From contig CAZDDI010000003.1 in assembly GCA_964504195.1 (NCBI GenBank), positions 83,380 to 147,379 of the forward strand: a DNA stretch of 64,000 nucleotides, given 5' to 3'. Below, piece by piece: positions 4,038 to 20,343 of the stretch. Each line of letters opens with the position of its first letter. The first letter of the stretch is position 1. Both the position numbers and the translations under genes were made by a program. Under the pieces are notes generated by a model, which was not told where the DNA came from, did no database searches, and saw only the letters and a list, made by a program, of their open reading frames with translations. The DNA comes from an uncultured Anaerolineales bacterium (lineage in GTDB: Bacteria; Chloroflexota; Anaerolineae; B4-G1; SLSP01).

Positions 4038-4042
4038 ACCGG

Positions 4043-4318
4043 TCAGCGGGTCGGCGGCGCGATAAAATAGCCGTCTTCAATGGCGGGCGCGTTAGCGAGC
4101 GTAGTTTCGCGGGCTAACCCGACATGCAGTGTATCCTCGCGCAAGACCGACCCTGGCGGTAGTGTTGGGGCCGCAGAATTAGTATCTAGCGTTTGCAACC
4201 ACGCGGCATACTCCAGAATCGCAGTGAGCTGATCTGGGTATAACATCAGTTCTGCCTCGCTCAATTCCAGTTGCGCTAATTTCGCGATGTGCGCAACATC
4301 GTCACAGGTCAAAATCAT
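4043..4318 (-). CDS. gatC: Asp/Glu-tRNA amidotransferase subunit C
   Basis: 91 aa. MILTCDDVAHIAKLAQLELSEAEL... is a typical GatC sequence, and its position immediately 5' of the gatA fragment fits. Confidence 0.75.
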   Translation of the reverse strand: MILTCDDVAHIAKLAQLELSEAELMLYPDQLTAILEYAAWLQTLDTNSAAPTLPPGSVLREDTLHVGLARETTLANAPAIEDGYFIAPPTR

Positions 4319-4539
4319 AGCTACTTCCTATAGTGACTAGTGAGCAGTTCGTCGAGAGATGGAGAAATTACTTCTCGTTGCTCATCGCTTACTGCTCACC
4401 TTGTGGTACTTCTCATTCCTTCTTCTCTATGCTATAATTTCCTGTGGATTTCACAAGTGAGGGGCTTCTACAATTAGGGTGACAAAGTTACCTCTTGTGA
4501 TGTTGGATTTGCGATTTACCGATTTTCAAGGGAGTGTTA

Positions 4540-5174
4540 TGTTCAATCTTGACCCACAAACCATTTTGCCGTCGTTGGCGATTGTACTACTCGCCATTCC
4601 CATCCACGAGTGGGCGCACTGTTGGGCAGCTTATATGCTAGGCGATCCTACGCCGGGTAGCGAGGGCCGGCTTACGCTCAACCCTTTGCTCCACCTCGAT
4701 CCTATCGGGACGCTGATGATTTTTGTAACCGGCTTTGGCTGGGGCCGCGCCGCGCGCGTCAATCCCTATCAGATGTGGCGCGTGAAAAATCCGCGCGTCG
4801 GGATGGCAATTACGGCCTTTGCCGGCCCTTTCTCCAACATTGTGCTGGCGCTGTTCTTTGCCTTACCGTTTCGCTTGGGTTTAATCAATCCGCAACAAGC
4901 AGGCTTCTTAACCAATTTTCTTTACTATATTATTGTGATCAATGTTGGCCTGGCGATGTTCAATTTGCTCCCTATCCCCCCGCTAGATGGATCGCGTATC
5001 TTGGCCGGTTTTGCCCCACCCGCTGTTGCCGATTTCATCGAAAGCCTTGAACCGGCTGCGCCCGTTATTTTAATGGTTGTGTTATTTTTGTTGCCGATGG
5101 TAGGGCTTGATCTGATCAATCTGTTACTCCGCCCGGCGATGACCTTCATGTTGCAGGCAATTTTCTGGTGGTAA
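4540..5174 (+). CDS. Site-2 protease family (M50) membrane zinc metalloprotease
   Basis: It has multi-TM hydrophobic segments, an HEWAH (HExxH) motif and an LNPLLHLDPIGT motif. A GGGAG RBS precedes an ATG at 4540. Confidence 0.7.
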
Positions 5175-5680
5175 ACCGCGCCCGTCCCGGCCATCGCATT
5201 ACGCAGTTTTTCGCTACTTTGTTCGCGCCGCTTTTGCCGGTTGATACAGCGTATGCGGCTGTTCAGCTCTCTCCGGTTCTGTTGACGTTGTTCCAACGTA
5301 TGGCCCGTGCCGAGCAACGGCACGGCATCGCGCTCTGCCGTCGGTTGGCGGAGCAAGGACACACTACCCCGGATTTACTGGCAGCGGCGCTACTCCATGA
5401 TGTGGGCAAGCTGTGCGCCCCACCGCGCCTCTGGGAACGGGTGTGGGTCGTACTGGCGGAAGCGTTCGCGCCGGAGCGTGCCGCGCGCTGGAGCGCCAGC
5501 ACGTCCCCGCGCTGGTGGCAACGCGCATTGGTGGCACGGCGTCAACATGCCGCCTGGGGGGCAGAACTGGCCGCCGAAGCCGGTGCAACGGCCCGCACCG
5601 TCTCCCTGATCCGCACCCACCACGACCCGCCCGGCGATGATGCAGATTTGCGCGCGTTACAAGTGGCCGACGAAACGTAA
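5168..5680 (+). CDS. HD-domain phosphohydrolase-like protein
   Basis: It carries an LLHDVGK HD motif. The start is uncertain (GTG at 5168 overlapping the M50 stop). Confidence 0.5.
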   Translation: MVNRARPGHRITQFFATLFAPLLPVDTAYAAVQLSPVLLTLFQRMARAEQRHGIALCRRLAEQGHTTPDLLAAALLHDVGKLCAPPRLWERVWVVLAEAFAPERAARWSASTSPRWWQRALVARRQHAAWGAELAAEAGATARTVSLIRTHHDPPGDDADLRALQVADET

Positions 5681-5723
5681 ATTTCAAGCTGCGGTTCATG
5701 CGCCTGGAGCAAAGGATACCCCT

Positions 5724-6575
5724 ATGAAAAACTTCGCCGTGTTGCAACTTTCGGGCTGCGCGGGATGTGAAGTCTCGCTCCTCAACGCCGATGCCTGGAT
5801 CAAGGACTACCGCCTGCTCTACATGCCGCTGGTGGTCTCTGCCCATGATGTGCCGGATGTGGATGTGTTGCTCATCAGCGGCGGGGTGCGCACGGATGAA
5901 GACCTCTACAAATTGCGGCGGGCGATCCACCACGCGCAGCAGGTCGTCGCCGTCGGCACCTGCGCCATCTCCGGCGGCGTCGCCAACCTGGGCGACCGCG
6001 ATGAGGTGCGCGCGCTCTTCATGGCCCACGCTGAAGAGCATCACGACCTGCCGCGCCTGCTGCCGCGCTCCCATCCCATTGATGCCATCGTGGAGGTGGA
6101 TCGCTACCTGCCCGGCTGTCCGCCTACGCCGGAGCTCTTCATGGCCGTGCTCTCCGATCCCGATGCGTTTGTGGCCGGGCGCACCGTCTGCCACGAGTGC
6201 GGGCGCAAGAAGCTCAAAGATATGCGCCCGCAAAAATTGCTTGGCTTCCAGCAAGGCCATGTTGACCCGGACATCTGCCTCATCAATCAGGGCTATCTTT
6301 GCATCGGCTCCTCGACGCGGGGCGGTTGCCGCGCCCCCTGCACGCGCGCGGGTCACCCCTGCGTGGGTTGTCGCGGCCCTTCGGATGCGTTCATCGAGAA
6401 GGAATCCGAGGCCTGGTTCACCAGCATCCAGCGCGTCTTCGCCGCCATGACCGACGTGCCGGAGGAAGACCTCACCGCTGGGCTACGTTCTCCGCAAATG
6501 GCCCTGTTCCTCTTCCAGTTCTCCGATTACGCTGGCGGCGGGCGTCCCGCGCGCCTGAAAGAGAAGGTGCTGTGA
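5724..6575 (+). CDS. [NiFe]-hydrogenase small subunit (NuoB-like 20 kDa fold + Cys-rich FeS region), cytoplasmic
   Basis: MKNFAVLQLSGCAGCE...LPGCPPTPE is the hydrogenase small-subunit / NADH-dehydrogenase 20-kDa signature. A C-terminal region carries about 8 Cys. There is no twin-arginine signal. The stop overlaps the large-subunit start (TGATG). Confidence 0.8.
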   Translation: MKNFAVLQLSGCAGCEVSLLNADAWIKDYRLLYMPLVVSAHDVPDVDVLLISGGVRTDEDLYKLRRAIHHAQQVVAVGTCAISGGVANLGDRDEVRALFMAHAEEHHDLPRLLPRSHPIDAIVEVDRYLPGCPPTPELFMAVLSDPDAFVAGRTVCHECGRKKLKDMRPQKLLGFQQGHVDPDICLINQGYLCIGSSTRGGCRAPCTRAGHPCVGCRGPSDAFIEKESEAWFTSIQRVFAAMTDVPEEDLTAGLRSPQMALFLFQFSDYAGGGRPARLKEKVL

Positions 6576-7885
6576 TGACCACATTGACTTTTCCCCTCAG
6601 CCGTATCGAAGGCCACGCGCGCGTGGTGATCGAAGTGCGCGAAGGCGCGGTGCTGTCCGCTCATTTCCAGGCCACCGAGCTGCGCGGGTTCGAGTACCTC
6701 ATCAAAGGCGCACCGGCGGAGCAAATGCCGGTCATCGTGCCGCGGATCTGCGGCGTTTGTTCGACTGCGCATCACGTCGCCGCCGTCAAGGCGCTGGAAG
6801 ACGCCTACGGCATCGAGCCGCCGCCGCTGGCGTTGCAGATCCGCGAGCTGTTGATGCTGGGCCAGTTGATTCAGAACCAGGCCACGTCGCTGTTCATCTT
6901 CACCATGCCCGACCGGTTGGGCGTGGCGAGTCTCTTCCAGGTGGATGCGGCCAGCGAGGCTGAGGCCGCATCTGGTATAGCCGTGCGCGCGCTGCAAGTC
7001 CGCAAGGCCGGCACCGATCTCATCGGGGTGGCCGGCGGACAATTCATCCACCCGGTCAAGGCCGTGATCGGCGGAGTGACGAGCGGCATCACGCCGAGCG
7101 CCGCCGCCCAGATGCGTGAGCAGTTGCAAGCCGCGCTCCCTATCGCCTGCGAGCTCTTCGATTATTACTGGGAGACCTCGGTAGCGCTGGGCGAGCGGTT
7201 GGGCACCTGGGGCGATGACGAACCGGCTTGTTACATCTCCGCCGTCTCCGGGCTGCGCCCCAACTTCTACGGTGACGCTATCCGGCTGGTGGGGTGTGAG
7301 GGTGATTCGTGTGCGCTCTTCCCGGCGCGGCATTTCCGCGAATATCTGAGCTACGACGACACCGATTACAGCTACGCGGCCAAATCCAGCTACCAGGGCA
7401 ATGTTCTGCGGGCCAACAGCCTGGCGCGCATCAACATCGTTGAGCAGCTGGGGACGCCCTGCGCTGATCGTTACCTTAAACAATTCAAGGCGACATTTGG
7501 CTCGCCCGCCCACGCGATTCTGCTCTTCGACCTGGCGCGCGGCATCGAACTGGTCTACGCGCTGGAGCGGGCCATCGAGCTGCTGGCCGCGCCGTTGGAT
7601 GTAGGCCCGGAAGCCGTGCCGTACACCCCCCGCGACGGCGAGGGTTACGGGCTGGTCGAAGCCCCGCGTGGGCCGCTCATCCATCACTACCGTATCGAAA
7701 ACGGCCTGATAGCGCAAGCCGAATTCATCATCCCTACCGTGCATAACGTGCTCGCCATCGAGCGTGCGCTGCGTGTGGCGGCGAACCGCTACATCACGGC
7801 AGATAGCGTCAACCTGGAGCTGGAGCGCGCGGTCGGGCGCGTTGTGCGGGCCTTCGATCCGTGCATTGCCTGTGCGACACACTAG
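6575..7885 (+). CDS. [NiFe]-hydrogenase large subunit; terminates at the His of DPCIACATH (no cleavable C-terminal extension)
   Basis: The N-terminal motif is RICGVCSTAHH and the C-terminal motif is DPCIACATH*. The protein is 437 aa and translationally coupled to the small subunit. Confidence 0.85.
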   Translation: MTTLTFPLSRIEGHARVVIEVREGAVLSAHFQATELRGFEYLIKGAPAEQMPVIVPRICGVCSTAHHVAAVKALEDAYGIEPPPLALQIRELLMLGQLIQNQATSLFIFTMPDRLGVASLFQVDAASEAEAASGIAVRALQVRKAGTDLIGVAGGQFIHPVKAVIGGVTSGITPSAAAQMREQLQAALPIACELFDYYWETSVALGERLGTWGDDEPACYISAVSGLRPNFYGDAIRLVGCEGDSCALFPARHFREYLSYDDTDYSYAAKSSYQGNVLRANSLARINIVEQLGTPCADRYLKQFKATFGSPAHAILLFDLARGIELVYALERAIELLAAPLDVGPEAVPYTPRDGEGYGLVEAPRGPLIHHYRIENGLIAQAEFIIPTVHNVLAIERALRVAANRYITADSVNLELERAVGRVVRAFDPCIACATH

Positions 7886-8020
7886 TGTCCTGCGGTATGG
7901 CCGTTCCAAGAATTAAAACCGTTCACCTTGCTCGGCGTGGATTGTCAAATCCACGCCTCTGAGCTACACAGGGCCCGGGAATCGCTGGAGTTAGCAATCC
8001 AGCGAGAGCAGGATGCGCCG

Positions 8021-8053
8021 TTCGCGTGCCCGCGAAGCCGCCGCTTCGCGCTA
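8021..8053 (+). terminator. Hairpin CGCGAAGC-cgcc-GCTTCGCG followed by a T-rich tract
   Basis: This is a perfect 8-bp stem with the T-rich tract CTATATCTATTTTC displaced 3'. The same stem sequence recurs at 18005-18024. Confidence 0.25.
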
Positions 8054-8088
8054 TATCTATTTTCAAGGAAACAGGAAAGGAGGCGCGG

Positions 8089-11001
8089 ATGCGCTGTTCG
8101 CAATGCGGCCAAGAGTGGCCGGAGACCTACATAGGTTGCCCTGAATGTTTCATCCCCTTTAGCGTCACCGCTTCCGGCGAGCGGGGTATCGCTATTGGCG
8201 GCAACGCTCATAATAACACCTTCAACCTCGGCGATACTTATGTATCGCCCGATGCTCCACCCGAAGAACTGCTCCACGCCTATTACCGCTCACTGGCCGC
8301 AGAGTGCGCGCGGCTGCCGCTGGGCGTGGTGGATCCCAAATTCGCTGCGCCGGGCCGCGAGGGGGAAGTGAGCCTGCACCAGGTCTACGTGGGGCTGGAT
8401 GTGGTCGTCCCCGTGCGCGAGGAAACCGAAGACACCCATGCTTGGGGACTGCGCCTGGCGCGCGGCGAGGGCGAGGGCCGCATGCCGTTGCTTGAAGCTT
8501 TGGCTGCGCCCGCCGCGATGCGCGCTGTGCTCCTGGGCGATGCCGGTTCCGGCAAGACCACCTTCGTCAACTACCTGGTCTACCGGCTGGCTGCTGCCGC
8601 CAGCGCCGGGGATGTTCACGTCGAAGATCTGCCGGCGGCATTCCAGGGCTTGTGGCCCGTACGCCTGCTGCTGCGTGAGGTAGCAACTCACATGCCGGCC
8701 GCGGTCACTTGCGGCACCGCGACCATGTTGTGGGAGGCGCTCCAGGCAGATATAGCCAGCCGGTTGGGGGCGGTGGCGGCGGAACGCCTGCTGCCCTACA
8801 TGCAGGCGCGAGTGTTGCGACGCGGCGGTTTCTTACTGCTGGATGGCCTGGATGAAGTGCCCGAAGCCGGACGGCGGCGCAAGTGCCTGCTGGAAGCGTT
8901 GCAAGCCCTGGCGGATAGCCTGCCCGCCGGTGCGCGGGTGCTGCTCACCGCGCGCCCCTACGCCTACGCTGACCCCGCCTGGCAACTAGGTGATTTCCCC
9001 ATCCTGGCGCTGGCGCCCTTTGATGAAACGCAAGTGGAACGCTTTGTCGCCCGCTGGTATCAGGCAGTGCGCCCGGCGTTGGGGTGGGATGCGGCGGCCG
9101 CCGCGGCGCGGGGTGCGCAGTTGACCCAGGCCTTGCAGGAGCGGACATACCTGGCAGACCTGGCCTCGCGCCCGTTGCTCCTCACCTTGATGGCGACCCT
9201 GCACAGCAGTTGGGGGCAGCTGCCGGAGGATCGCGCTGATCTGTACGAGGAATCGGTCAAATTGCTGCTTTCACGCTGGCAGCGGGGCCGCCTGGTGCGC
9301 GAGGGACAGCAAATAGTGACCGAACCGGGCATCGCGGCGGCGTTGGGTTGGGGGGAAGCCCGCATTCGCGCGGCGTTGGAGAAACTGGCGTTTAACAGCC
9401 ACCAGCGGCAGGGCAGCGAGGCCGAGCGTGAGGATGCCCCCGCCGATATTCCCCAGGCGGCGGTGTTGGCGGCCTTTGCCGGCGTGCCTGAAAACGTCAA
9501 TCCGTGCGTGGTGCTCACCTATCTGGAACAACGCGCCGGGCTGCTCATGGGCCGCCGCGAAGAGGTCTATGTCTTTCCGCATCGCTCCTTTCAGGAATAC
9601 CTGGCGGCGTGTTACCTGAATGCCGACCCGGAATCGGCCGGCCGCTTGCGGAAACTGGTCTATGCCGACCCGGCCTGGTGGCGGGAGGTTTTCCTGCTGG
9701 GGGTGGGCAAGAAACGGCTGGGCAGTCTGGGCGATGCCGTGAATACCGTGAATACCCTCTTGCCGTGCGATGTAGAGAAATGCGCCCCGCCGCAACCGGC
9801 GGATTGGCGCGCGGCGGTGCTGGCCGGCAAAGCCGTGTTGGAATTGCGCTTGCGCGAGCGGGGCGCGGCGCAGGAGCATAGCGCGGTGTTGGTGGAGCGC
9901 GTGCGCGACTGGCTGGCGGCTCTGGTGACGGGTGGGCAGTTGCCGGCCCCAGAACGCGCCGAGGCCGGTGACGTGCTGGGCGCGCTGGGCGACCCGCGTC
10001 CGGGGGTGGGCGTAAGGGCGCACGGCCCGGTGGGGGCGCACGGCCGTGCGCCCTTACCCGATATTGTCTGGTGTGCCGTGCCCGCCGGGTCGTTCCTGAT
10101 GGGAAGTGTGGCGGATGAACCGGAGACCTATCCTGATGAAAAGCCCCAACATGCGGTGGACTTGCCCGCGTTCTATCTCAGCCGGTATTTGGTGACCAAC
10201 GCGCAGTTCCGGCCCTTTGTGGAGGGGGATGGCTACCGCAACCCGGCTTACTGGACGCCGGAAGGTTGGGCCTGGCGGCAGGGCGCGGAACCGGATTTGA
10301 CGCCATTGGAGGGTATGAGCGAAGATTGGCAACGTCAATATCGTGAATGGTTGGCCGGGCGCTCGCTTGAAAAGCGCGGTTGCCCGTTTTATTGGGAGCA
10401 CCCACAATTAAGTGTGCCTAATCGCCCGGTGGTGGGGATTACCTGGTACGAAGCGGCGGCGTATGGCCGGTGGCTGGAGGAACAGTTGCGAGTTACGGGT
10501 TCGGAGTTGCGCGTGTGGCAGGAGAATGAATGCACAATTCGCAACTTGAAACTCGGCACCTTCAACGTGCAACTGCCTAGCGAAGCGGAGTGGGAGAAGG
10601 CGGCGCGGGGTGAAGATGGCCGACGGTATCCCTGGGGCGGGGAGTGGCAGGAAGATTGCGCGAATACGGAAACCACCGAGTTGGGCCAGACCAGCGCCGT
10701 GGGGTTATTCCCGGCGGGGGTTAGTCCTTATGGATGCCTGGATCTGGTGGGCAATATGTGGGAGTGGACGCGGAGTCGTTGGGGGTGCAATGTGTTGCGC
10801 CCGGATTTTGGATATCCGTATACTGCTAATGATGGCCGTGAAGCTGAAAGTAGCGCTGCTGTGCCGGTGCTTCGCGGCGGCTCCTGGCTCAACAGTCAGT
10901 GGAGCGCCCGGTGCGCTTCCCGCAACAGGAACGTACCTGCCAACTTCATTGACGATGTCGGGTTTCGGGTGCTGTTGTCCCTGGGGGATGCTGATTTCTG
11001 A
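8089..11001 (+). CDS. STAND/NACHT-family NTPase with N-terminal zinc ribbon and C-terminal FGE-sulfatase (SUMF1/EgtB-like) domain
   Basis: The domains in order are:
- Zn ribbon: CSQCG...CPEC.
- Walker A: GDAGSGKTT.
- Walker B: LLLDGLDEV.
- NACHT winged-helix motif: FPHRSFQEYLAACYL.
- C-terminal FGE motifs: YLVTNAQF, GITWYEAAAY, LPSEAEWEKAARG, YPWGG, GNMWEWT, RGGSW, VGFRV.
A strong AAAGGAGG RBS precedes the ATG at 8089. Confidence 0.8.
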   Translation: MRCSQCGQEWPETYIGCPECFIPFSVTASGERGIAIGGNAHNNTFNLGDTYVSPDAPPEELLHAYYRSLAAECARLPLGVVDPKFAAPGREGEVSLHQVYVGLDVVVPVREETEDTHAWGLRLARGEGEGRMPLLEALAAPAAMRAVLLGDAGSGKTTFVNYLVYRLAAAASAGDVHVEDLPAAFQGLWPVRLLLREVATHMPAAVTCGTATMLWEALQADIASRLGAVAAERLLPYMQARVLRRGGFLLLDGLDEVPEAGRRRKCLLEALQALADSLPAGARVLLTARPYAYADPAWQLGDFPILALAPFDETQVERFVARWYQAVRPALGWDAAAAAARGAQLTQALQERTYLADLASRPLLLTLMATLHSSWGQLPEDRADLYEESVKLLLSRWQRGRLVREGQQIVTEPGIAAALGWGEARIRAALEKLAFNSHQRQGSEAEREDAPADIPQAAVLAAFAGVPENVNPCVVLTYLEQRAGLLMGRREEVYVFPHRSFQEYLAACYLNADPESAGRLRKLVYADPAWWREVFLLGVGKKRLGSLGDAVNTVNTLLPCDVEKCAPPQPADWRAAVLAGKAVLELRLRERGAAQEHSAVLVERVRDWLAALVTGGQLPAPERAEAGDVLGALGDPRPGVGVRAHGPVGAHGRAPLPDIVWCAVPAGSFLMGSVADEPETYPDEKPQHAVDLPAFYLSRYLVTNAQFRPFVEGDGYRNPAYWTPEGWAWRQGAEPDLTPLEGMSEDWQRQYREWLAGRSLEKRGCPFYWEHPQLSVPNRPVVGITWYEAAAYGRWLEEQLRVTGSELRVWQENECTIRNLKLGTFNVQLPSEAEWEKAARGEDGRRYPWGGEWQEDCANTETTELGQTSAVGLFPAGVSPYGCLDLVGNMWEWTRSRWGCNVLRPDFGYPYTANDGREAESSAAVPVLRGGSWLNSQWSARCASRNRNVPANFIDDVGFRVLLSLGDADF

Positions 11002-11170
11002 TTTCTGGTTGCTGTGATTTCTGGATCTCTGAATCCTGGGGGGATTCCAAAGGGGGCGCGCCCCCTTTGGCCGCCGCGTAGCGGCGGAGCTCGCGGCAAT
11101 TGTGCTGGTTGCTGGAAGCTGGCTGCTTGAAACTTGAGGCTTGCTGCTTGTGACTTGCCGCTTTCTCGCC
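10996..11170. repeat. Two period-7 degenerate tandem arrays (TGATTTC units; GCTKGNN units) in the NACHT-partner intergenic region
   Basis: The first array is TGATTTC TGATTTC TGGTTGC TGTGATTTC. The second is GCTGGTT GCTGGAA GCTGGCT GCTTGAA ACTTGAG GCTTGCT GCTTGTG ACTTGCC GCTTTCT. Confidence 0.6.
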
Positions 11171-11193
11171 TAATCATTTTACGGAGGCTACTT

Positions 11194-11916
11194 ATGAAAA
11201 CTCAAGAACAGGAAATCGTGACGGTATTGGCGGAGCTCGTCCCGGATGGGGGAACGGCGCTGGCGCGGCGGGTGGGGCCGCAGGCGTTGGCCCACGCCCA
11301 GGCCATTCAGGGCGAAATCGTGCCCTGGCTGGAGGCCAATGAGTTGACGGCGCGGGCCTGGCAAGCCTTTCAACAATCGCCTCAGGCGCAGAAGCCAAAG
11401 TTGCTCACCGTTGTGCAACTCATTCTGGACGATGATGTGGATCTGGCGGCGCGGCTGGACGCGCTGTTGCGGGCCTATCAGCAGGCGCAGCCCGCCGGCA
11501 AGCAGGAGACGCGCACCGTGACCGCTTCCGGCGAGCGCAGCGTCGCCATCGGCGGGAATGCCCGCGGCAACACCTTCAATACAGGCGACCAGATCCAGAC
11601 CCTCCAACCCGGCCTGGATGCGGATGCTGTGACCCGGCTCTTCGCGCAGGCGTTGGACTTGGCCCGGCAACAGCCCGTGGAACTCCGCGAAGACGTGGCG
11701 GCAGCCGTGGAAACGGCGCAAGAAGAGGTTGCGGCTGGGCCAGATGCCGACAAAGCTTTGCTGAATAAGATGCTCGACGTGTTGCTTGATAAGGCCCCAG
11801 ACGTGCTGGAACTGGTCGTTGAGGCCATCCTCAACCCGGCTGCCGCAGTGGGCAAGGGCGCCAAACTGCTGGCGAAACAAGCGCGCGAGAGCTTGCAAAA
11901 GCAACGCTCCGCGTAA
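11194..11916 (+). CDS. Hypothetical alpha-helical protein sharing a 23-aa motif with the upstream NACHT protein
   Basis: The start is MKTQEQEIV after an ACGGAGG RBS. Its internal VTASGERSVAIGGNARGNTFNTGD motif matches VTASGERGIAIGGNAHNNTFNLGD in the NACHT protein. The DNA is also conserved (17/17 nt, ACCGCTTCCGGCGAGCG). The rest of the protein is predicted helical and Ala/Leu/Gln-rich. Confidence 0.6.
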   Translation: MKTQEQEIVTVLAELVPDGGTALARRVGPQALAHAQAIQGEIVPWLEANELTARAWQAFQQSPQAQKPKLLTVVQLILDDDVDLAARLDALLRAYQQAQPAGKQETRTVTASGERSVAIGGNARGNTFNTGDQIQTLQPGLDADAVTRLFAQALDLARQQPVELREDVAAAVETAQEEVAAGPDADKALLNKMLDVLLDKAPDVLELVVEAILNPAAAVGKGAKLLAKQARESLQKQRSA

Positions 11917-12139
11917 GGCTTACTGTATTGGTGCGTGTGCAGGAAAAACTCGTGTCTGAAGCAAAGGGGAGTCCACGGAAAAACCGCCAGCCGCTCACGT
12001 TCAGATGCACAATGCTAAGAAATTTCTGCTTCTAACGGATTCTCTTGAATATCAAAGATGCTGAATGAAGCGGATATTTGTTACTTGTTCACAATTGCAC
12101 CTGTGTTATACTCACGTTACAATTTAATAAGACTGTGCA

Positions 12140-12300
12140 TTTCCGAGTCTCTCTACCTACCGGCCAGTAGCCCAGGGGAGCGAGACCATTGGGTGTAGCG
12201 GGAAACGGCTACGCCTCCCGTATTTGAAAAGGAAGTGCGCCGCAGTGCCATAATACCTTTCCCCTAGGCAACAGCTTCATTGCTTGGGGGCAGGTAGTTA
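12140..12300 (+). ncRNA. Structured 5' leader / riboswitch candidate (possibly cobalamin-type) upstream of the BtuF/FecB-like ABC importer
   Basis: It shows nested helices: CTACCTACC...GGCAGGTAG, GTAGCC...GGCTAC, and a GGGAAAC-loop hairpin. The blocks AAGGAAGUGCG and CAGUGCCAU resemble the E. coli btuB leader. An intrinsic terminator follows just before the RBS. Confidence 0.35.
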
Positions 12301-12310
12301 TGTGTGTATT

Positions 12311-12341
12311 ACGGCGTCCTTTTCAGGACGCCGTTTTTTGT
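12311..12341 (+). terminator. Intrinsic terminator (expression-platform candidate) ACGGCGTCC-TTTTCA-GGACGCCGT + T6
   Basis: This is a perfect 9-bp stem followed by TTTTTT, about 95 nt upstream of the SBP start codon. Confidence 0.55.
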
Positions 12342-12436
12342 TGTCACCTGTCTGCATCTGCAATCGCGCGCGAAGGTTTACGCTGGTGAGTGGATGTGGA
12401 TACTGATCTCAAATCTATAGACGGAGGAAATAAGAG

Positions 12437-13990
12437 ATGTCGAAAATATGGAAACAACTGTGGATAGGGCTGTTATTGGTGGTGATATTGGCGAGCTGTG
12501 CGCCCACGCCGACCACGGCGCCGCCCGAACCCTCACCTGCCACGCTCAGCCCGGCGACCCCAGAGACGCCCGCTGCAACTTTGCAAGTAAGTGGCGCGAT
12601 GGCCTCAGAACGCGCCTTTACGACGGAAGACCTCACGGCGCTGGGACTGCAAGAGTCCTTGTATACCAACCGTGATGGAGAATCTACGACCTATACGGGC
12701 GTCTCCATAGCTCTCTTGCTAAACACTGTGACGCCAGCCGCCGACGCTACCACCCTGGTCTTAGTGGCTAGTGATGGTTATGAGGCGCAAGTCCCGCTCG
12801 CTGATGCACTGGTCTGTGCGGAGTGCATTGTGGCATTTGAAGCGGATGGTAGCTTCCGCGCCGTATTGCCGGACTTCCCCGGTAATGTCCAGGTGCGCGA
12901 TTTGGTCGCGCTCCAGGTGCTGAGCGCTGCCGAAGCTCAACCCGAACCGCCCCCCACTTCCGAGGACACCATTCCCAATGATGGGCCGGTGACGATTACC
13001 GATGCTGCCGGGCGCACCGTGAGTCTGGAACAACTCCCGCGGCGCATTGTGGTCGTCGGGCGCGGCCCGTTTATGGCCCTCCATCTACTCTACATGTTCC
13101 CTGAAGGCCGTACCCGGTTGGTCGGGGCAGAAAGTCGCAGCGCCACCCCTAGCGATTTTCTACCTTACGTCCAACCGGATTTTCTGGAGCGCATCGTGGG
13201 CATGGCCGCCAATCCCAACGCGGAACAGATTGCTACGCTTGAGCCAGATTTGGTGATAATCAAGAGTGTCGCATTGGAGCAAATAGGCGAGTCCCTGGCG
13301 CAGGTCAACATTCCGGTCGTGTACCTGGGGCTGGAAACACCGGAGCAATTCTTCCAGGATGTGACCAATCTGGGGGCGTTGTTGGGCAATCCCACCCGCG
13401 CGCAGGGGATCATCGCTTTCTATCAAGCGCGCCTGGAGCGCATCGAAGCCGGCGTCGCGGATATTCCTGAGAACGAACGCCCGCGCGTGTTGCTGTTGGA
13501 GCATTCTGACCGGAGCGGGGAAGTTGCAGGCCGGGTGCCTCCGTTGGTGTGGATGCAGACCATTCAAGTCGAGGCCGCCGGCGGCGTCCCGGTGTGGCGC
13601 GAGGCTGTGCAAGTGACGGATGGCTGGACGGTGGTGAATTTCGAACAGATTGCCGCCTGGGATCCGGATAAAATTTTCATGGTGATCTCATACCAGCTCG
13701 ATCCCCAAGAGGTGATAGATGGTTTCAAAGCGGATCCGCAATGGCGTGCTCTGAGCGCGGTGCAAAATGAAGAGCTATACGCCTTCCCCGGAGACATCTT
13801 CGGCTGGGACACCCCCGAAGCCCGGTGGTTGCTCGGCGTGAACTGGTTAGCCACCCGTCTGCACCCCGAGGTTTTTGCGGATTTAGACCTCGAAACGGAG
13901 ATTTACACCTTTTTTGGCGAACTCTATGACATGGAACGGGATGTGATAGATTCTGCTATCTTGTCCCAAGTGTATCTGGATGTCCATTAG
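12437..13990 (+). CDS. ABC transporter periplasmic substrate-binding lipoprotein, FecB/BtuF (class III SBP) family, with extra N-terminal domain
   Basis: It has a signal peptide plus lipobox (LLLVVILASCAP). The C-terminal half (RIVVVGRGPFM...EPDLVIIKS...) matches iron-siderophore/cobalamin binding proteins. The roughly 200-aa N-terminal domain is of unknown function. Confidence 0.7.
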   Translation: MSKIWKQLWIGLLLVVILASCAPTPTTAPPEPSPATLSPATPETPAATLQVSGAMASERAFTTEDLTALGLQESLYTNRDGESTTYTGVSIALLLNTVTPAADATTLVLVASDGYEAQVPLADALVCAECIVAFEADGSFRAVLPDFPGNVQVRDLVALQVLSAAEAQPEPPPTSEDTIPNDGPVTITDAAGRTVSLEQLPRRIVVVGRGPFMALHLLYMFPEGRTRLVGAESRSATPSDFLPYVQPDFLERIVGMAANPNAEQIATLEPDLVIIKSVALEQIGESLAQVNIPVVYLGLETPEQFFQDVTNLGALLGNPTRAQGIIAFYQARLERIEAGVADIPENERPRVLLLEHSDRSGEVAGRVPPLVWMQTIQVEAAGGVPVWREAVQVTDGWTVVNFEQIAAWDPDKIFMVISYQLDPQEVIDGFKADPQWRALSAVQNEELYAFPGDIFGWDTPEARWLLGVNWLATRLHPEVFADLDLETEIYTFFGELYDMERDVIDSAILSQVYLDVH

Positions 13991-15005
13991 GGCGCAAGCA
14001 GCCGCCGCGCGTTCCCGGCGTTTCCGGCGGCAATTATGGAGTCTGGCAGGGTTGCTATTGCTGACCATTTTGCTCTCGCTGCTTCTGGGCCGCTATCCCG
14101 GCCCATACTTTACGCCCCTGGCGACCTTGCGCGAGAATGCGTTAGCACGCACCGTGGTGCTGAACTTGCGCCTCCCGCGCATTTTGGCCGCCGTTTTTCT
14201 GGGAGCGACGCTGGCCGCTGCCGGCACGACCTTTCAGCTCATCTTCCGCAATCCGCTGGTGGATGCTGGCTTTTTAGGGGTTTCACAAGGCGCGGCCTTT
14301 GGCGCTTCCCTGGCGATTGTTTTTCTGGGCGGCACGGCTGCGGCGGTGCAGGGGAGCGCGGCAGCCTTTGCTTTTGTGGGGCTTGCCGCTAGCTACCTGA
14401 TGGCGCAGCGCTTGCGCTTGGGAGATTGGGTGCTCCGTTTGGTCATGGCGGGAATTGGAGTCTCCGCCTTCTATGCTGCCGGCACCGGGGTGATCAAATA
14501 TCTGGCCGATCCCTTAAAGCAACTGCCAGACATCACCTTTTGGTTGTTGGGCGGCTTGTGGGCTATCACCTGGCGCGATATCCTGCATATCTTGCCCGTC
14601 GTGGCGCCGGCGCTCATCATCATCTACTTGATGCGCTGGCGGCTGAATTTACTCGCGCTTCAGGATACTACGGCTTTTGCGTTAGGGGCAGTGCCGGGGC
14701 GGGAACGGCTGGTCATGCTGATAGCCGCGACGGCTGCGACCGCCGCGGTGGTCTCCAAAGCCGGGCAAATCGGTTGGGTGGGCCTGATTGTACCCCATAT
14801 CGCCCGCCGGGTGCTCGGCGCGGATGCGCAATTGACCGTACCTGGCGGGATGTTCATCGGCGCGTTGTTTGTGCTGGGTTGTGATAATCTGGCGCGCACG
14901 GTGCTCTCCGGTGAAATCCCGTTGGGCATCCTCACCTCACTCATTGGCGCATTGGTTTTCTTTAGCTTGCTGTTGCGCAATGACCTGGAGCTGAAAAAAC
15001 GATGA
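13980..15005 (+). CDS. ABC transporter permease, FecCD/BtuC family
   Basis: About 9 TM helices with a typical FecCD fold. It overlaps the upstream SBP gene. Confidence 0.8.
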   Translation: MSIRAQAAAARSRRFRRQLWSLAGLLLLTILLSLLLGRYPGPYFTPLATLRENALARTVVLNLRLPRILAAVFLGATLAAAGTTFQLIFRNPLVDAGFLGVSQGAAFGASLAIVFLGGTAAAVQGSAAAFAFVGLAASYLMAQRLRLGDWVLRLVMAGIGVSAFYAAGTGVIKYLADPLKQLPDITFWLLGGLWAITWRDILHILPVVAPALIIIYLMRWRLNLLALQDTTAFALGAVPGRERLVMLIAATAATAAVVSKAGQIGWVGLIVPHIARRVLGADAQLTVPGGMFIGALFVLGCDNLARTVLSGEIPLGILTSLIGALVFFSLLLRNDLELKKR

Positions 15006-15778
15006 CCCCCGCAGTATCACTCACAGACCTGGCTTTTCGCTATACTCCGACCGCGCCCGATGTGGTGCAAAACATCACCCTGGACTTGCCCTCACGCGCA
15101 GTGACAGCAATTTTAGGCCCTAATGGTTCAGGAAAAACCACGTTGCTGCATCTCATCTTGGGGCTGCTCACGCCACAGCAGGGGCGCATCGCGTTGAATG
15201 GTACACAGCACACCGGCTACGCGCGTCGGGAGGTCAGTCATATTCTGGGATTGGTACCCCAAGAAGAACCGCCAGCGTTCAACTTGAATGTGCTGGAAAC
15301 GGTGCTGTTAGGCCGCGCCCCCTATCTCAAACTGCTCCAGCGGCCCAGCGAACGTGATTACACGACCGCTTTTCGCTCATTAGAGCAGGTCGGCATCGCG
15401 GATTTATGGGCGCGCCCGGTGCCCGCGTTGAGCGGCGGCGAACGACAGTTAGCCGTGTTAGCCCGCGCCTTGACGCAAGAACCGGACATTCTGTTGTTGG
15501 ATGAACCGACTTCACATCTGGACGTGAACAACGCGCGCCAGATTTTAAGCCTCATGCGTGACTTACGAACGCAAGGCAAAACCATTGTCTTTACCACACA
15601 TGATCCTAATGCGGCTGCCGCTACGGCGGATTATGTGGTGCTGATGCGTCAGGGCCGGGTGTTGTATGCCGGCACCGCCCACGAAACTTTGACCGGAGAA
15701 CATCTGAGCGCCACCTATGATGTGCCCATTGAAGTGGTGCGCGATCATCTGGGCCGTTTATTGGTGGTAGTCTATTAA
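15002..15778 (+). CDS. ABC transporter ATP-binding protein (FecE/BtuD-like)
   Basis: Walker A GPNGSGKTTLL, signature LSGGERQ, and Walker B LLLDEPTSHLD. There is a 4-nt overlap with the permease. Confidence 0.85.
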   Translation: MTPAVSLTDLAFRYTPTAPDVVQNITLDLPSRAVTAILGPNGSGKTTLLHLILGLLTPQQGRIALNGTQHTGYARREVSHILGLVPQEEPPAFNLNVLETVLLGRAPYLKLLQRPSERDYTTAFRSLEQVGIADLWARPVPALSGGERQLAVLARALTQEPDILLLDEPTSHLDVNNARQILSLMRDLRTQGKTIVFTTHDPNAAAATADYVVLMRQGRVLYAGTAHETLTGEHLSATYDVPIEVVRDHLGRLLVVVY

Positions 15779-15791
15779 GAGGAGCCTGATT

Positions 15792-16643
15792 GTGGAATCT
15801 ATACCTGATTGGTTGACCTTATGGCGAGAATTAGCCGAAGCCCATGCCCACAACTATCCGCAAGCCAGCGGCGCTGCTGCGCCCGATGCCTGGGCTACCC
15901 GGGCGCGCAGCTATCACGAATCCGTCCAACAGCGGTGGGCGCAACCGGATTCCAGCCGCGATTTTCTTGCGGCTGATTTACGACAGCATCCCCACAACAC
16001 GGTCGTAGATATTGGCGCTGGCACCGGCGCGTGGGCGATTTTCCTGGCCCGGCACGCGCGCCAGGTGACGGCGGTGGATCCTTCCCCCGCGATGCTGGAA
16101 ATACTGCGGGAGAATGTCGCGGCCAGCGGTTTGACCAACATCACCATCACCGAAGGCGGCTGGCCCACCGTGACCGTGCCGCAGCATGATGTGACCTTCT
16201 GTTCCCATGCGCTCTACAGCATTGCAGATTTCACGGCGCTTGTGCGCAAGATGGAGGCGACCGCGCGCCGGCGCTGCTATCTCCTGTTGCGCGTCTTCCT
16301 CCCCCACAGCATCATGGCGCAAGCCTCGCAACGTATTTGGGGTCAGCCTTACGATAGCCCCAACTTCCAGATCGCTTACAATGCTCTGTTGCAACTGGGC
16401 ATCTTTGCTAATGTTCTGTTAGAAGACAGTGGTCTGTGGCAACCGTGGACCAATGCGAATCTCGATGAAGCCTTTGCCGAAGTCAAACGCCGGTTTGGTT
16501 TGGAGCAAGATACCACCCACGATCAATTCTTACGCGAATTGCTGCGCCAACATTTGACCGAAGTAGCTGGTCGGGTAGTATGGCCGCGCGGCACCCGCTC
16601 GGCCCTGGTGTATTGGGATCTGGGCAAGCCGCGTTGTGAATAG
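15792..16643 (+). CDS. Class I SAM-dependent methyltransferase
   Basis: VVDIGAGTGAWAIFLA is SAM-binding motif I. It is the last gene of the ABC transporter operon. Confidence 0.65.
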   Translation: MESIPDWLTLWRELAEAHAHNYPQASGAAAPDAWATRARSYHESVQQRWAQPDSSRDFLAADLRQHPHNTVVDIGAGTGAWAIFLARHARQVTAVDPSPAMLEILRENVAASGLTNITITEGGWPTVTVPQHDVTFCSHALYSIADFTALVRKMEATARRRCYLLLRVFLPHSIMAQASQRIWGQPYDSPNFQIAYNALLQLGIFANVLLEDSGLWQPWTNANLDEAFAEVKRRFGLEQDTTHDQFLRELLRQHLTEVAGRVVWPRGTRSALVYWDLGKPRCE

Positions 16644-17567
16644 CCTGACCTATCACGAAGCGGTGACGTTGTTTGAACAGTGGGGCTTGCAAGTAGCACC
16701 GGGTCCCCGCGCGGGCGAAGTAACCCTGATGTTAGTTGCAGAGGATGCACATACTTATGCCGCCCACCCGCAATACTGCTTACCGCAGATGGCCGCAGTG
16801 ATTTGGGCCGCGCGCTGGCAGAATGGAAGCATCGGTTGTGGGCGGGTTGCCATGTCGGGCATACAGTGTGGTTAATGCGGAAGGAGAGTTACAGCTCAGC
16901 ACAAAAAAACTATTCTGGTTCTATCAAATACCCAATCTACCGATAGCTCTTTTGCGGTGGATTAAAAGACTGTAAAAGTATAATTTCCCGTTATAGCCGT
17001 GTTTTAACGGTAAAATTCGGGAACTTATAAATTTACGAACTTTAAGATGAATGGCCCACAGACATTTCTGGTGACCTAGTGGCGCGGTAAATCATAGTGC
17101 AATTACGCGCTGCGCTGGCATAACAAGCCATGACTTTTTTTGAAGTTGCAACATTAAACTTCATGTTGATTTGTTCTGATGAGGTGTTTTTTGGCAGCCG
17201 CGCTTTCCATAAGCGCGGCTGCTAACGCATTTGAAACATACCCACAACAAATTGGTTTAATGGTTATTAAATTACACCTCTCACATACGAAAAGTGTATT
17301 ATGACATTAGTGTAGTGTATGACGATAGGCTATAATAAACAGAATTTTAACATCTTTTAGTACTTATTGGCGTGGCTAGATCTACCGGCGGATTTCGCCA
17401 TTCCCTGCGCGGTTCCGTCATGGCTCTACCACACCAACAGTAACGCAAATGCGGGTAACTGGCGTCCCTCTCAGAGTCAGCTGCTCAGAGTGGATCCTTA
17501 GATCCACGACCGGTCAAATTTTTAGATTTGCCACTCGTTATTTGTTGTTTTAGGAGGGCCTTAATCC

Positions 17568-17930
17568 ATGAAGAGCTTAGAAGAATTGCGGAAGATAAAA
17601 GAACGGGCGTTGGAGCGGCGACAGCTGGCAGGGGCGGGGGCGCGCGCGCGGGTGACGGTGGCGATGGGCACGTGCGGTATCGCGGCGGGCGCGCGGGACA
17701 CCATGACGGCCATCCTCAACGAGATGGAGAAGCGCCAGCTGACCGATGTGGTGGTCACGCAGACCGGGTGCATGGGCCTGTGCGAGTACGAGCCGCTGGT
17801 GCAGATCCAGGTGGGTGAGGAAGAAGTGGTCACTTACGGCAAAATTGATCCCTCTCGCGTCCCCGACCTCATCGAGGCGCACCTGGTCAAGGGCGAACCG
17901 GTTGCAGCGTGGCAGGTACAGACGCAATAA
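17568..17930 (+). CDS. Small thioredoxin-like [2Fe-2S] ferredoxin-domain protein (HndB/NuoE-N-like), copy 1
   Basis: 120 aa with MGTCGI...TGCMGLCEYEP. A GGAGGG RBS is present. It is 97% identical to 28701-29063. Confidence 0.7.
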   Translation: MKSLEELRKIKERALERRQLAGAGARARVTVAMGTCGIAAGARDTMTAILNEMEKRQLTDVVVTQTGCMGLCEYEPLVQIQVGEEEVVTYGKIDPSRVPDLIEAHLVKGEPVAAWQVQTQ

Positions 17931-18069: not shown

Positions 18070-19842
18070 ATGGTTTACCGCGCACATGTCTTGATCTGCG
18101 GGGAACCCCGTTGTGTTGAAAAGGGCGCGCGGGATGTTGAGGCGGCGCTGACCCAAAAAATACAGGAGCTGGGCCTGGAAAACGAGGTCCAAATTCTGGA
18201 AGCCAGCGCGCTAGGGCATGGCGAACAAGGCCCGGAACTGGTGGTCTACCCCGAAGGCGTCCATTACGTCAACCTGCGCCCGGAAGACGCCACGCGCATT
18301 GTTGAAGAGCATCTGTTCAAGGGACGCCCCATCGCGGAATTGCAGTACAAAGAACCGCCTTCGGAGCCGCTGCCCGCGCCATCCCACAAAGAAATCCGCG
18401 TGGTGCTGGATAAAATCGGCAAAATTGATCCCGAAAATATTGATGATTACATCGCGCTGGATGGCTATGCCGCGCTGGCGAAAGTGCTGGGCGGGATGTC
18501 CCGCGACGAGGTGCTGGTCGTGCTCAAAACGTCCGGGCTGCGCGGGCGCGGCGGGGCGGGCTTCCCTACCCACCTCAAGTGGAGTTTCGCCAAGAACGCG
18601 CCCGGCGATGTGAAATACGTCATCTGTAACGCTGATGAGGGCGACCCCGGCGCGTTCATGAACCGGCGCGTGCTCGAAGGCGACCCGCACGCCGTCATCG
18701 AAGGTATGGCGATTGCGGCGTATGTCATCGGCGCGCGGCAGGGCTATATCTATGTTCGCGCCGAGTACCCCATCGCCATCAGCACTTTGCGCGTGGCATT
18801 GGCACAGGCCCGCGAGTATGGTCTGCTGGGGGAAAACATCCTCGACACTCATTTTAGTTTCGATCTGGAAATCCGCATGGGCGCGGGGGCCTTCGTCTGT
18901 GGCGAAGAGACCGCGCTGATGAAATCCATCGAAGGCGTGCGGGGGATGCCGACCACCCGCCCGCCCTTCCCGGCCACGTCGGGCCTGTGGGGCAAGCCCT
19001 CCAACATCAACAACGTAGAGACCTACGCCAACGTGCCGCAGATTTTGCTCAAGGGCGGCGCGTGGTTTGCCTCGATGGGCACGGAGAAGAGCAAGGGCAC
19101 CAAGACCTTTGCGGTGGCCGGAAAAGTGGCGCGCACTGGCTTGATCGAAGTGCCGCTGGGCATCACCATTCGCGAAATCGTCTACGATGTGGGCGGCGGT
19201 GTGCTCGATGGCAAGAAGTTCAAGGCCGTGCAGACCGGCGGCCCGATGGGCGGTTGTATCCCAGAGAAGTATCTTGACCTGCCGGTGGATTACGAAAACC
19301 TGGCGGCCGTCGGCTCGATCATGGGTTCGGGCGGCTTCGTCGTGATGGATGAAGAAACCTGTATGGTGGATATCGCTCGCTTCTTCATGGAGTTCACGCA
19401 GGAAGAATCGTGCGGTAAATGTGTGCCGTGCCGCGTGGGCACCCGGCGGATGTTGGAGATTCTCGAACATATCTGCGCGGGCAAGGGCAAGCCCGGTGAT
19501 ATCGAGATGCTGGAAACCCTGGCCGAGAAGATCGGTTTTGGCTCGTTGTGCGGGCTGGGTCAGGGAGCGCCAAATCCGGTGCTCAGCACGCTAGAGCACT
19601 TCCGTGACGAGTACGAGGCACACATCTACGAGAAGCGCTGCCCGGCGAAGGTCTGCAAGGCCCTGATCGAGTACCGCATCGAGGCCGAGACCTGTATCGG
19701 CTGCACACGCTGCGCTCGTAACTGCCCGGTCAACGCCATTAGCGGCAAGGCCAAACAGGTGCATGTGATTGATCCTGAGACCTGCATCCGCTGCGGTATC
19801 TGCGCGCAGGTTTGTCCGGTAGACGCCGTGAAAGTTGAGTGA
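18070..19842 (+). CDS. NuoF-like NAD(P)H-binding flavoprotein subunit (HoxF/HndC/HydB-type) with N-terminal Trx-like domain and C-terminal 2x[4Fe-4S] ferredoxin domain, copy 1
   Basis: The motifs are GRGGAGFPTHLKWSF (NADH/FMN site) and ESCGKCVPCRVG ([4Fe-4S] N3). The C-terminal CIGCTRCARNCP and CIRCGICAQVCP are two ferredoxin motifs. Confidence 0.85.
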   Translation: MVYRAHVLICGEPRCVEKGARDVEAALTQKIQELGLENEVQILEASALGHGEQGPELVVYPEGVHYVNLRPEDATRIVEEHLFKGRPIAELQYKEPPSEPLPAPSHKEIRVVLDKIGKIDPENIDDYIALDGYAALAKVLGGMSRDEVLVVLKTSGLRGRGGAGFPTHLKWSFAKNAPGDVKYVICNADEGDPGAFMNRRVLEGDPHAVIEGMAIAAYVIGARQGYIYVRAEYPIAISTLRVALAQAREYGLLGENILDTHFSFDLEIRMGAGAFVCGEETALMKSIEGVRGMPTTRPPFPATSGLWGKPSNINNVETYANVPQILLKGGAWFASMGTEKSKGTKTFAVAGKVARTGLIEVPLGITIREIVYDVGGGVLDGKKFKAVQTGGPMGGCIPEKYLDLPVDYENLAAVGSIMGSGGFVVMDEETCMVDIARFFMEFTQEESCGKCVPCRVGTRRMLEILEHICAGKGKPGDIEMLETLAEKIGFGSLCGLGQGAPNPVLSTLEHFRDEYEAHIYEKRCPAKVCKALIEYRIEAETCIGCTRCARNCPVNAISGKAKQVHVIDPETCIRCGICAQVCPVDAVKVE

Positions 19843-19854
19843 CAAGGAGGCAGC

Positions 19855-20343
19855 ATGGATAAAGCGTTGACCCAAACGATACATCGGGCGCTCACGCGCC
19901 ACGCTAACAGTCAGGAATCTCTGGTGGAAATGCTGCGCGAGATCAACGCCGAGCTAGGCTATTTGAGTGCGGAGACGTTGGGCGGGTTGGCCGATGCGCT
20001 GAAATTGCCGCGCAGCCAGGTGCTCAGCGTTGCTAGCTTCTACAGTATGCTCGATTTGGAACCGCGCGGGACGCACGTCATCAAGCTGTGCCAGGACGCG
20101 CCGTGCCACGTCGCCGGCGGACAGGAGATTTGGGAGACCCTGGAGCGTGAGTTGGGGATCAGCTTTGGCGCGACTACACCGGATGGCAAATGGACGCTGC
20201 TGACGACCAGCTGCATCGGCGCGTGCGCGGTCGGGCCGGTGATGATGGTGGATGACGACATCTACGGCAATCTCACCCCGGAGCGGGTGCGGGAGATTCT
20301 CGCGCAGGTTGCCGACCAAGACCGGGCAGGAGGTAGAACATGA
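19855..20343 (+). CDS. NuoE-like [2Fe-2S] subunit (HoxE/HndA-type)
   Basis: CQDAPCHVAGG...TTSCIGACAVGPV is the NuoE 2Fe-2S cysteine pattern. A GGAGG RBS is present. Confidence 0.85.
   Translation: MDKALTQTIHRALTRHANSQESLVEMLREINAELGYLSAETLGGLADALKLPRSQVLSVASFYSMLDLEPRGTHVIKLCQDAPCHVAGGQEIWETLERELGISFGATTPDGKWTLLTTSCIGACAVGPVMMVDDDIYGNLTPERVREILAQVADQDRAGGRT

Follow-up and report, generated by a model that had tools for sequence, protein, structure and literature searches.

This work concerns the RNA leader of a four-gene ATP-binding cassette (ABC) importer operon in a 64-kb stretch of contig CAZDDI010000003.1, from an uncultured Anaerolineales bacterium; we call the whole stretch the window. 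We believe the leader is a riboswitch of the molybdenum/tungsten cofactor (Moco/Tuco) class, of the variant that lacks stem P3, that it acts as a terminator-type OFF switch, and that it provides feedback on the operon of a metal importer resembling MolBC-A. We give this joint reading a probability of about 80%. The RNA belongs to the family, its alternative pairings are there in the sequence, and the same riboswitch family lies upstream of homologous transporters. From these observations we infer the rest, which is that the ligand would be the tungsten rather than the molybdenum cofactor, the direction in which the switch works, and the substrate that is transported. The original prediction for this leader was a transcription-terminating riboswitch for a corrinoid or chelate uptake system, possibly sensing cobalamin. 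A terminator-type riboswitch does stand before a FecCD/BtuCD-type importer, but cobalamin has to be given up as the ligand since RF01055 is the only riboswitch family found.

The aptamer lies at 12132-12250 on the plus strand. Its match to Rfam RF01055, the Moco RNA motif, scores 63.8 bits (E 5e-13), where the gathering score is 36. The match is not truncated and spans model positions 1-135, the full length, save positions 59-73, which are P3 and are deleted. At gathering scores (Rfam 15) it is the sole Rfam match in the whole window. When 11900-12450 was scanned at E<=10, RF01055 was again the top match, and what remained was noise: an L10 leader at 20 bits against 44, and two bacterial small RNA models and one small nucleolar RNA model far below threshold. 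The original prediction had allowed that no Rfam model might score above threshold over the leader. One does, and because RF01055 stands 28 bits above its threshold this objection falls away.

The case for cobalamin does not survive the same scans. RF00174 and the other cobalamin models gave no match at E<=10 in 11900-12450 and none at the gathering score anywhere in the window, so the cobalamin riboswitch is rejected at the level of both sequence and structure. The supposed resemblance to the btuB leader is spurious; the blocks in question are the 3' strand of P1 and its flank. It could still be argued from the proteins that a cobalamin riboswitch controls a BtuFCD-like corrinoid importer, since the permease and the ATPase score against BtuC/BtuD-type NCBIfam models and the methyltransferase has weak partial matches to CbiT and CpaM. 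However, the permease and ATPase scores are far below the cutoffs, BtuF structures are among the weakest listed matches of the binding protein (E ~1e-4), and the leader is a full-length RF01055. We give this idea practically no chance of being right. Judged by its sequence, the leader is a genuine riboswitch of the known, curated Moco/Tuco class and not of the vitamin B12 class.

The architecture agrees with the covariance-model match. In the Rfam alignment P1 pairs 12134-12144 with 12231-12244, P2 occupies 12147-12186 and has a bulge for the tetraloop receptor, P4 occupies 12191-12216 with its GAAA tetraloop at 12201-12204, and P5 (12217-12227) is a helix of two pairs. The minimum free energy (MFE) fold recovers P1, P2 and P4. 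Stem P3 is absent and the spacing between P2 and P4 is only 4 nt. The conserved junctions are present: uCCGAG at 12143-12148, CCUCCC at 12214-12219, and UUUGaAAAGGA. The core, UUUGAAAAGGA at 12223-12233, departs from the consensus UUUGGAAAGGA by a single change, G to A at 12227. The P3-less subtype of RF01055 was described by Regulski et al. in 2008 (PMC2408646), and the window RNA is like it in P1, P2, the P4 GAAA tetraloop, P5, the junctions and the absence of P3, as well as in having a downstream expression platform and a genomic context related to molybdenum or tungsten (Mo/W). It differs by a degenerate receptor and by the core change. Its operon encodes a FecCD-type importer rather than modABC, tupABC, moa genes or a Mo/W enzyme, and its host is one of the Anaerolineae (Chloroflexota), a phylum absent from the listing of the 2008 paper.

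The leader sits in an intergenic gap of 520 nt (11917-12436), between an upstream stop codon at 11916 and the ATG at 12437, so the long non-coding gap of the original prediction is confirmed. The segment 12125-12345 folds with an MFE of -94.6 kcal/mol, against a mean of -68.9 for 200 shuffles that preserve dinucleotides (z = -5.5), and none of the 200 is as low. The gap, the strong fold and the terminator-like hairpin together mean that a structured leader ending in a terminator before the importer operon is real. The helices are a different matter. A hairpin with a GGGAAAC loop had been proposed and exists, as P4 with its tetraloop. An inner helix GTAGCC/GGCTAC was also proposed, and here the partner was wrong: GGCTAC (12207-12212) pairs with GTAGC at 12195-12199, within P4, and not with GTAGCC at 12167-12172. 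The helix said to close the whole region, CTACCTACC (12153-12161) with GGCAGGTAG (12289-12297), is absent from the structure. Forcing it raises the energy by 19 kcal/mol (-75.4 versus -94.6), and it conflicts with the family consensus, so we reject it. Its first strand is the 5' strand of P2 with the receptor bulge, and its second belongs to a spacer hairpin at 12249-12302.

That spacer hairpin fills the interval between aptamer and terminator on the plus strand, and in the computed folds it consists of CAUAAUACCU...AGGUAGUUAUG enclosing CCCCUAGGCAA/UUGCUUGGGGG. It forms in both alternative conformers and is enclosed by the anti-terminator helix. After it comes the predicted intrinsic terminator at 12311-12341 (+), which was found by a terminator scan and by folding and recurs in the same layout at a homologous locus (L002, below). 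Its stem is ACGGCGUCCU / AGGACGCCGU with loop UUUC and a U-tract. The hairpin itself (12311-12334) has 10 pairs, 7 of them G-C, and a 4-nt loop, and is followed by TTTTTGTTGT; the 3' flank of the stem is UUUUUUGUUGU. As the original prediction had it, the hairpin lies about 95 nt upstream of the ATG.

The competing strand is part of the aptamer. The anti-terminator 5' strand, identified by pairing and folding at 12225-12242 (+), consists of UGAAAAGG at 12225-12232, which is conserved core running into the 3' strand of P1, and GCGCCG at 12237-12242. The first complements CCUUUUCA at 12318-12325 with 8 Watson-Crick pairs. The second complements CGGCGU at 12312-12317 with 6 pairs, one of them G-U. 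This makes 14 pairs across a 4-nt bulge, and 12312-12325 is the 5' arm of the terminator together with its loop. The change from G to A at 12227, the sole deviation from the consensus in this stretch, makes the complementarity to the terminator loop perfect. In isolation the anti-terminator duplex is worth -19.2 kcal/mol, the terminator hairpin -17.7 and P1 -14.7. These three energies are similar, so a ligand that stabilizes P1 and the core should tip the balance toward termination. With the P1 5' strand taken away, the anti-terminator fold is the MFE structure (-50.7 versus -49.4). The MFE structure of the nascent transcript is the anti-terminator conformer when it ends at 12326 and the aptamer plus terminator when it ends at 12334.

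Since the 3' core and P1 strand of the aptamer are complementary to the 5' arm and loop of the terminator, bound ligand should favor termination, and we take the RNA to be an OFF switch on the strength of these computed folds. When cofactor is plentiful, the metal-pterin cofactor would bind and lock P1 and the UUUGaAAAGGA core. With the aptamer locked, hairpin 12311-12334 would form and RNA polymerase would stop at the U-tract ahead of the operon. When cofactor is scarce, the freed segment 12225-12242 would pair with 12312-12325, the terminator would be blocked, and the four genes would be transcribed. The importer would supply the metal of the cofactor, as tungstate and/or molybdate, which would make this an end-product feedback on uptake.

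It could be objected that 12311-12341 is a hairpin that arose by chance or one that ends the transcripts of the upstream gene (11134-11916), and that the aptamer acts in some other way, for example on translation. About 0.8 such sites are expected by chance in a region of this size according to the terminator scan, and the distance of about 95 nt to the start codon could be read in the same way. However, the upstream stop codon is 395 nt away and the hairpin follows the aptamer, so any transcript that it stops must include the aptamer. Of its bases, 14 complement the conserved 3' core and P1 strand of the aptamer, the same arrangement is kept in L002, and the Shine-Dalgarno sequence at 12423 finds no pairing partner in the aptamer. 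We consider this objection very improbable. The hairpin and U-tract are, on the evidence of these pairings, the expression platform of the riboswitch itself. The upstream gene has no family match in Pfam or NCBIfam and shows no sign of a tie to the riboswitch.

By eye a candidate promoter can be suggested at 12085-12112 (+), with a -35 element TTGTTC (12085-12090), a 16-nt spacer and an extended -10 element TGtTATACT (12104-12112). It would put the start of the transcript about 10 nt upstream of the aptamer. A consensus scan for promoters found none at its own threshold. The first gene has a Shine-Dalgarno sequence GGAGG at 12423-12427 and its ATG start codon at 12437, both on the plus strand and read directly from the sequence (12423-12439).

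Comparison with homologous loci supports the structure. The product of the first gene has close relatives in metagenome assemblies of Anaerolineae and other Chloroflexota. Our comparison set is 80 loci that encode homologues of this binding protein, taken from species-representative genomes, and we scanned them with the Rfam models and with our own covariance model built from three P3-less aptamers. A nucleotide profile search (nhmmer) with the single aptamer had proved too insensitive, with 2 clear hits, and these scans replaced it. A joint MAFFT alignment of P3-containing and P3-less aptamers was misaligned in the 5' half, and it is for this reason that the model was built from the three P3-less sequences. 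That model forced the P3 stems of the other hits into the wrong insert columns, and P3 status was therefore taken from the Rfam alignments.

RF01055 lies upstream of the homologue, on the coding strand, in 10 of the 80 loci (L002, L003, L004, L013, L018, L021, L026, L028, L034 and L041). All ten, drawn from Chloroflexota, Aminicenantes, Acidobacteriota and unclassified bins, are above the gathering threshold. P3 is missing in only three of the RF01055 aptamers found, those of the window, of L002 and of the minus strand of L003; nine other leaders keep it, often enlarged. Across 14 aligned leaders 83.7% of pair cells hold standard pairs, against 41-49% when the partners are slid by 1-3 columns, and 26 of 37 pairs show double-sided changes; none of 500 shuffles attains the observed values, though the figures lean toward structure because the alignment was fitted to the model. 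The original prediction had said that a lack of covariation in homologous leaders would count against it, and covariation is found.

The expression platforms of the relatives can be compared as well. L002, whose binding protein is 65% identical, has the same platform layout with GGCGGCGUCCUUUUCCGGGACGCCGCUUUUG in the same position. L003 has a different terminator platform, in which the 3' strand of P1 pairs with the terminator's 5' arm. The platform of L004 is instead one that sequesters the Shine-Dalgarno sequence, with an element CUCCUUUCC able to pair either with that sequence or with the aptamer core. L003 contains two RF01055 aptamers back to back on opposite strands, at 99-222 (-) without P3 and at 364-565 (+) with an enlarged P3. 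The plus-strand aptamer precedes two tandem copies of the transporter (657-10151) with DUF364 and XdhC genes between them, and the gene controlled by the minus-strand aptamer is outside the fetched locus.

What does the riboswitch control? The four genes that had been expected downstream are all found on the plus strand. A lipoprotein substrate-binding protein of 517 aa (12437-13990) has an N-terminal PruR-like domain and a C-terminal class III domain of the Peripla_BP_2 type, matching PF01497 at 82 bits. It is followed by a FecCD/BtuC-type permease of a type II ABC importer (13980-15005; PF01032, 247 bits), by an ABC ATPase of the FecE/BtuD/HmuV type (15002-15778, from Pfam and NCBIfam), and by a class I S-adenosylmethionine-dependent methyltransferase (15792-16643, from Pfam and NCBIfam, a PDB sequence search and synteny). 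The nearest solved relatives of the C-terminal domain are the structural-genomics proteins 4ovk, 4pag and 4hn9, then MolA/HI_1472. The family profile matches MolA at E 1e-20. In a Foldseek search with a predicted model (mean predicted local distance difference test, pLDDT, of 92.4) MolA is third, with E 1.3e-18 and a template modeling (TM) score of 0.74 normalized to the target. MolBC-A is an established type II importer for molybdate and tungstate (PMC4031551). The Haemophilus influenzae system (HI1470/71/72; PDB 3psa/3psh) has the same parts, namely an ATPase, a permease of FecCD fold and a class III binding protein. In sequence and structure MolA is related to the window domain, though identity is only ~19% and 4ovk, 4hn9 and 4pag are closer. 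Unlike the window binding protein it has no extra N-terminal domain. PMC4031551 describes no riboswitch for molABC and calls the regulator an unknown factor.

Among the relatives under riboswitch control, the regulated protein of L028 (399-2354) and of L034 (5128-7035) fuses a class III domain with a true ModA domain, which scores 162 bits in the first and 170 in the second with TIGR01256 (cutoff 62.5), so that one polypeptide holds two different binding-protein folds. The regulated operon of L003 includes DUF364 and the Moco chaperone XdhC, and DUF364 is tied by genome context to molybdate/tungstate transporters (PMC2954201). The riboswitch is separated from the binding protein by a TonB-dependent receptor and a MobB-like NTPase_1 protein in L013 and L021. 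As far as gene content can tell, these features tie the riboswitch-controlled members of the family to Mo/W. We conclude that the operon is a MolBC-A-like type II importer with a methyltransferase, and that the importer most likely brings in tungstate and/or molybdate.

A different view of such operons already exists. In Eubacterium limosum Tuco riboswitches precede two "Fe ABC-type" operons, which were read as iron importers, and the terminator-controlled fetABC1 is raised under tungsten limitation (PMC11725836). Its leader shares with ours a P3-less RF01055 aptamer, a hairpin with poly-U, and an ABC transporter annotated as "iron" downstream; a PruR-like domain and a methyltransferase are not described there, and the cargo is read as iron. 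On that model our riboswitch would control an importer of iron or an iron chelate, coupling iron supply to the production of Mo/W enzymes as proposed for fetABC. Homologues of our binding protein are indeed annotated at source as "iron complex transport system substrate-binding protein", and YiuA, CeuE, FeuA and other iron-chelate binders are among its structural neighbors. However, the "iron" names are automatic labels at the family level, and the ModA fusions, XdhC and DUF364 in riboswitch-controlled homologues, with the homology to MolA, indicate Mo/W. An OFF switch represses when cofactor is plentiful, just when the iron demand of tungsten enzymes should peak, and induction under tungsten limitation is better explained by acquisition of tungsten. 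By analogy that induction is the behavior expected of an OFF switch and a tungsten uptake system. We think an iron importer unlikely here.

The question of which metal the cofactor carries is harder. Regulski et al. found P3 absent in 58 of 176 Moco RNAs, and 17 of the 19 organisms with P3-lacking RNAs also carried genes of tungsten metabolism, from which sensing of Tuco was proposed (PMC2408646). In E. limosum, which depends on tungsten, all five riboswitches lack P3 and were treated as Tuco riboswitches in a 2024 study (PMC11725836). It is on the absence of P3 and these two papers that we assign the window RNA to the Tuco type, and by this analogy the RNA would sense the tungsten rather than the molybdenum cofactor, a view we favor somewhat over its opposite. 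The window encodes an FdhA-type formate dehydrogenase (33168-35897) with a Mo/W bis-molybdopterin guanine dinucleotide (bis-MGD) cofactor, which could use either metal, and it also holds a formate channel and a MobA-like protein (39892-40500).

Several points weigh against our reading and should be kept in view. The P2 receptor for the GAAA tetraloop is degenerate, CCUAC...CAGGG instead of CCUAAG...UAUGG, and near-canonical receptors are found in L002 and in the minus-strand aptamer of L003 (99-222). A core G is replaced by A at 12227. The computed folds are thermodynamic and are no proof of kinetic switching. Moco and Tuco are too unstable for routine tests in vitro. Apart from MolA, the closest solved relatives of the binding protein are annotated as iron or siderophore binders. 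The closest homologous locus, L001, has no riboswitch, and many homologue operons adjoin a PadR regulator instead. Among 150 same-strand open reading frames (ORFs) neighboring the transporters of L001-L051, the families met most often are PadR regulators (20) and NTPase_1 P-loop proteins (15), so in most of the homologue operons regulation may fall to a protein and not to a riboswitch. Given L001 and the PadR neighbors, not every member of the family need transport Mo or W.

The remaining points concern tungsten in particular. The link between P3-less RNAs and Tuco is correlative and has exceptions (PMC2408646), and neither tupA, wtpA nor aldehyde:ferredoxin oxidoreductase was seen in the 64 kb of the window. 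A reader could accept the family and the mechanism and still hold that the ligand is Moco, or that the RNA does not discriminate between Mo and W, and that the importer serves for molybdate uptake. P3-containing RNAs regulate the same transporter family at nine further loci, of which two have ModA fusions, and this adds to the case. The tungsten genes in 17 of 19 organisms and the five E. limosum riboswitches count on the other side, and for us they leave the molybdenum version a real possibility with the lesser chance.

The binding protein has one more feature that bears on what is imported. Its N-terminal domain (about aa 44-172, nt 12566-12952) is a borderline match to Pfam Oxidored_molyb, at 24.8 bits against 24, and its profile matches the periplasmic pterin-binding protein PruR (7kom, E 2.5e-5; 7kos, E 3.5e-5). 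The top Foldseek matches of its AlphaFold2 model (pLDDT 93.5) are the PruR structures 7kos, 7kou and 7kom, with TM scores of 0.69-0.73 normalized to the query and E 6e-7. The Moco domains of sulfite dehydrogenase and YedY rank after PruR. In PruR of Agrobacterium tumefaciens the pterin contacts include N102, Y104 and W160 (PMC11194511), along with the PW motif. An invariant DGY of our domain aligns with N-D-Y of 7kom, so the stacking tyrosine is retained and the asparagine contact is replaced by aspartate. There is no invariant cysteine in the domain alignment. From the predicted model, the domain appears to be a PruR-like truncated, or minimal, SUOX fold without the Mo-binding cysteine hairpin. 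PruR (7kos, 7kou, 7kom, 7kp2, 7rkb) and the window domain would share this fold at a TM score of ~0.7, and both are extracytoplasmic. PruR, however, is a free protein of a proteobacterial host, partnered with the signaling enzyme DcpA, whereas our domain comes from Chloroflexota and is fused to the binding protein of a transporter. We have come across no description of a PruR-like domain fused to a class III binding protein, and no search was aimed at one.

Stand-alone PruR-like homologues of ~150 aa occur in other settings. They are found as tandem pairs beside a PF01663 phosphodiesterase in L083 (2252-3289) and L085 (5446-6468) and as a single copy in L086 (3611-4105). They lie near transporters of the energy-coupling factor (ECF) type in the three contexts examined, with ECF-type (CbiQ) genes nearby in L085 and L086. 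These gene neighborhoods are hinting at a separate cofactor-scavenging system.

The methyltransferase also seems to belong to the operon. Its gene is kept there in L001, L002, L003, L006, L011, L036 and L070, which represent several phyla, and in L036 it (8600-9442) lies between the permease and ATPase genes. Searches of Pfam, NCBIfam and PDB sequences with this protein returned only generic class I matches. Type II importers as a class carry large cofactors such as B12, heme and siderophores. The cargo of the importer could then be not free tungstate or molybdate but a metal-pterin compound taken up for salvage: Moco, Tuco, molybdopterin or a product of their breakdown. Capture of the pterin outside the cell would fall to the PruR-like domain, import to the type II transporter and processing of the compound to the methyltransferase, and the cofactor-sensing riboswitch would shut the system off in a replete cell. 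We know of no bacterial uptake system that has been described for molybdopterin-type cofactors, though no search was made for one. In relatives, ModA is fused at the same position, which speaks for capture of an oxyanion over import of a pterin-bound metal, at least from the domain content, and we hold salvage to be an outside chance. The OFF logic of the oxyanion importer that we prefer fits uptake of the cofactor's own precursor as well.

Elsewhere in the window there are other features that we record for completeness. Two paralogous electron-input modules of the NuoE/NuoF type lie at 18070-25671 and 29203-35897, each including a NuoF-like protein of 590 aa, found at 18070 in the first module and at 29203 in the second. 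To one module are joined the large subunit of a NiFe hydrogenase and a truncated subunit of molybdopterin type; the other is joined to the full FdhA formate dehydrogenase. Between the hydrogenase and formate dehydrogenase clusters, at 25572-27553, are an AAA_21 ATPase (432 aa) and a DUF4276 protein (250 aa), which may be an inserted defense-type gene pair. A 991-aa protein at 8026-11001 has both a NACHT NTPase domain and, at its C terminus, an FGE-sulfatase (formylglycine-generating enzyme-like) domain. Between the methyltransferase gene and a small gene at 17568-17930 runs an AT-rich stretch of ~900 nt (16644-17567), mostly without an ORF of >=60 aa and with no Rfam match at the gathering score. 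Three very large ORFs are on the minus strand, at 50430-56429 (1999 aa), 45079-46806 (575 aa) and 47360-50074 (904 aa). The 575- and 904-aa products have no Pfam match at E<=1e-6; the search covered these two.

It is important to be clear about what is new. The RNA itself is an ordinary member of a known, curated class, and its good score in that family means that automated annotation would pick it up. The novelty of the RNA is low, and that of the transporter's architecture and annotation moderate. A plausible but wrong ligand call has been corrected, from B12 to a Mo/W cofactor. The comparative evidence (RF01055 in 10 of 80 loci, the ModA fusions, XdhC and DUF364, and the homology to MolA) suggests that widespread ABC importers labeled "iron complex" are related to Mo/W, and this bears on the reading of the Tuco-controlled "iron transporters" of E. 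limosum. The fusion of a PruR-like domain to a class III binding protein, together with the methyltransferase embedded in the operon, is to our knowledge an undescribed architecture, and it offers a testable lead on the bacterial uptake of pterin-bound tungsten or molybdenum.

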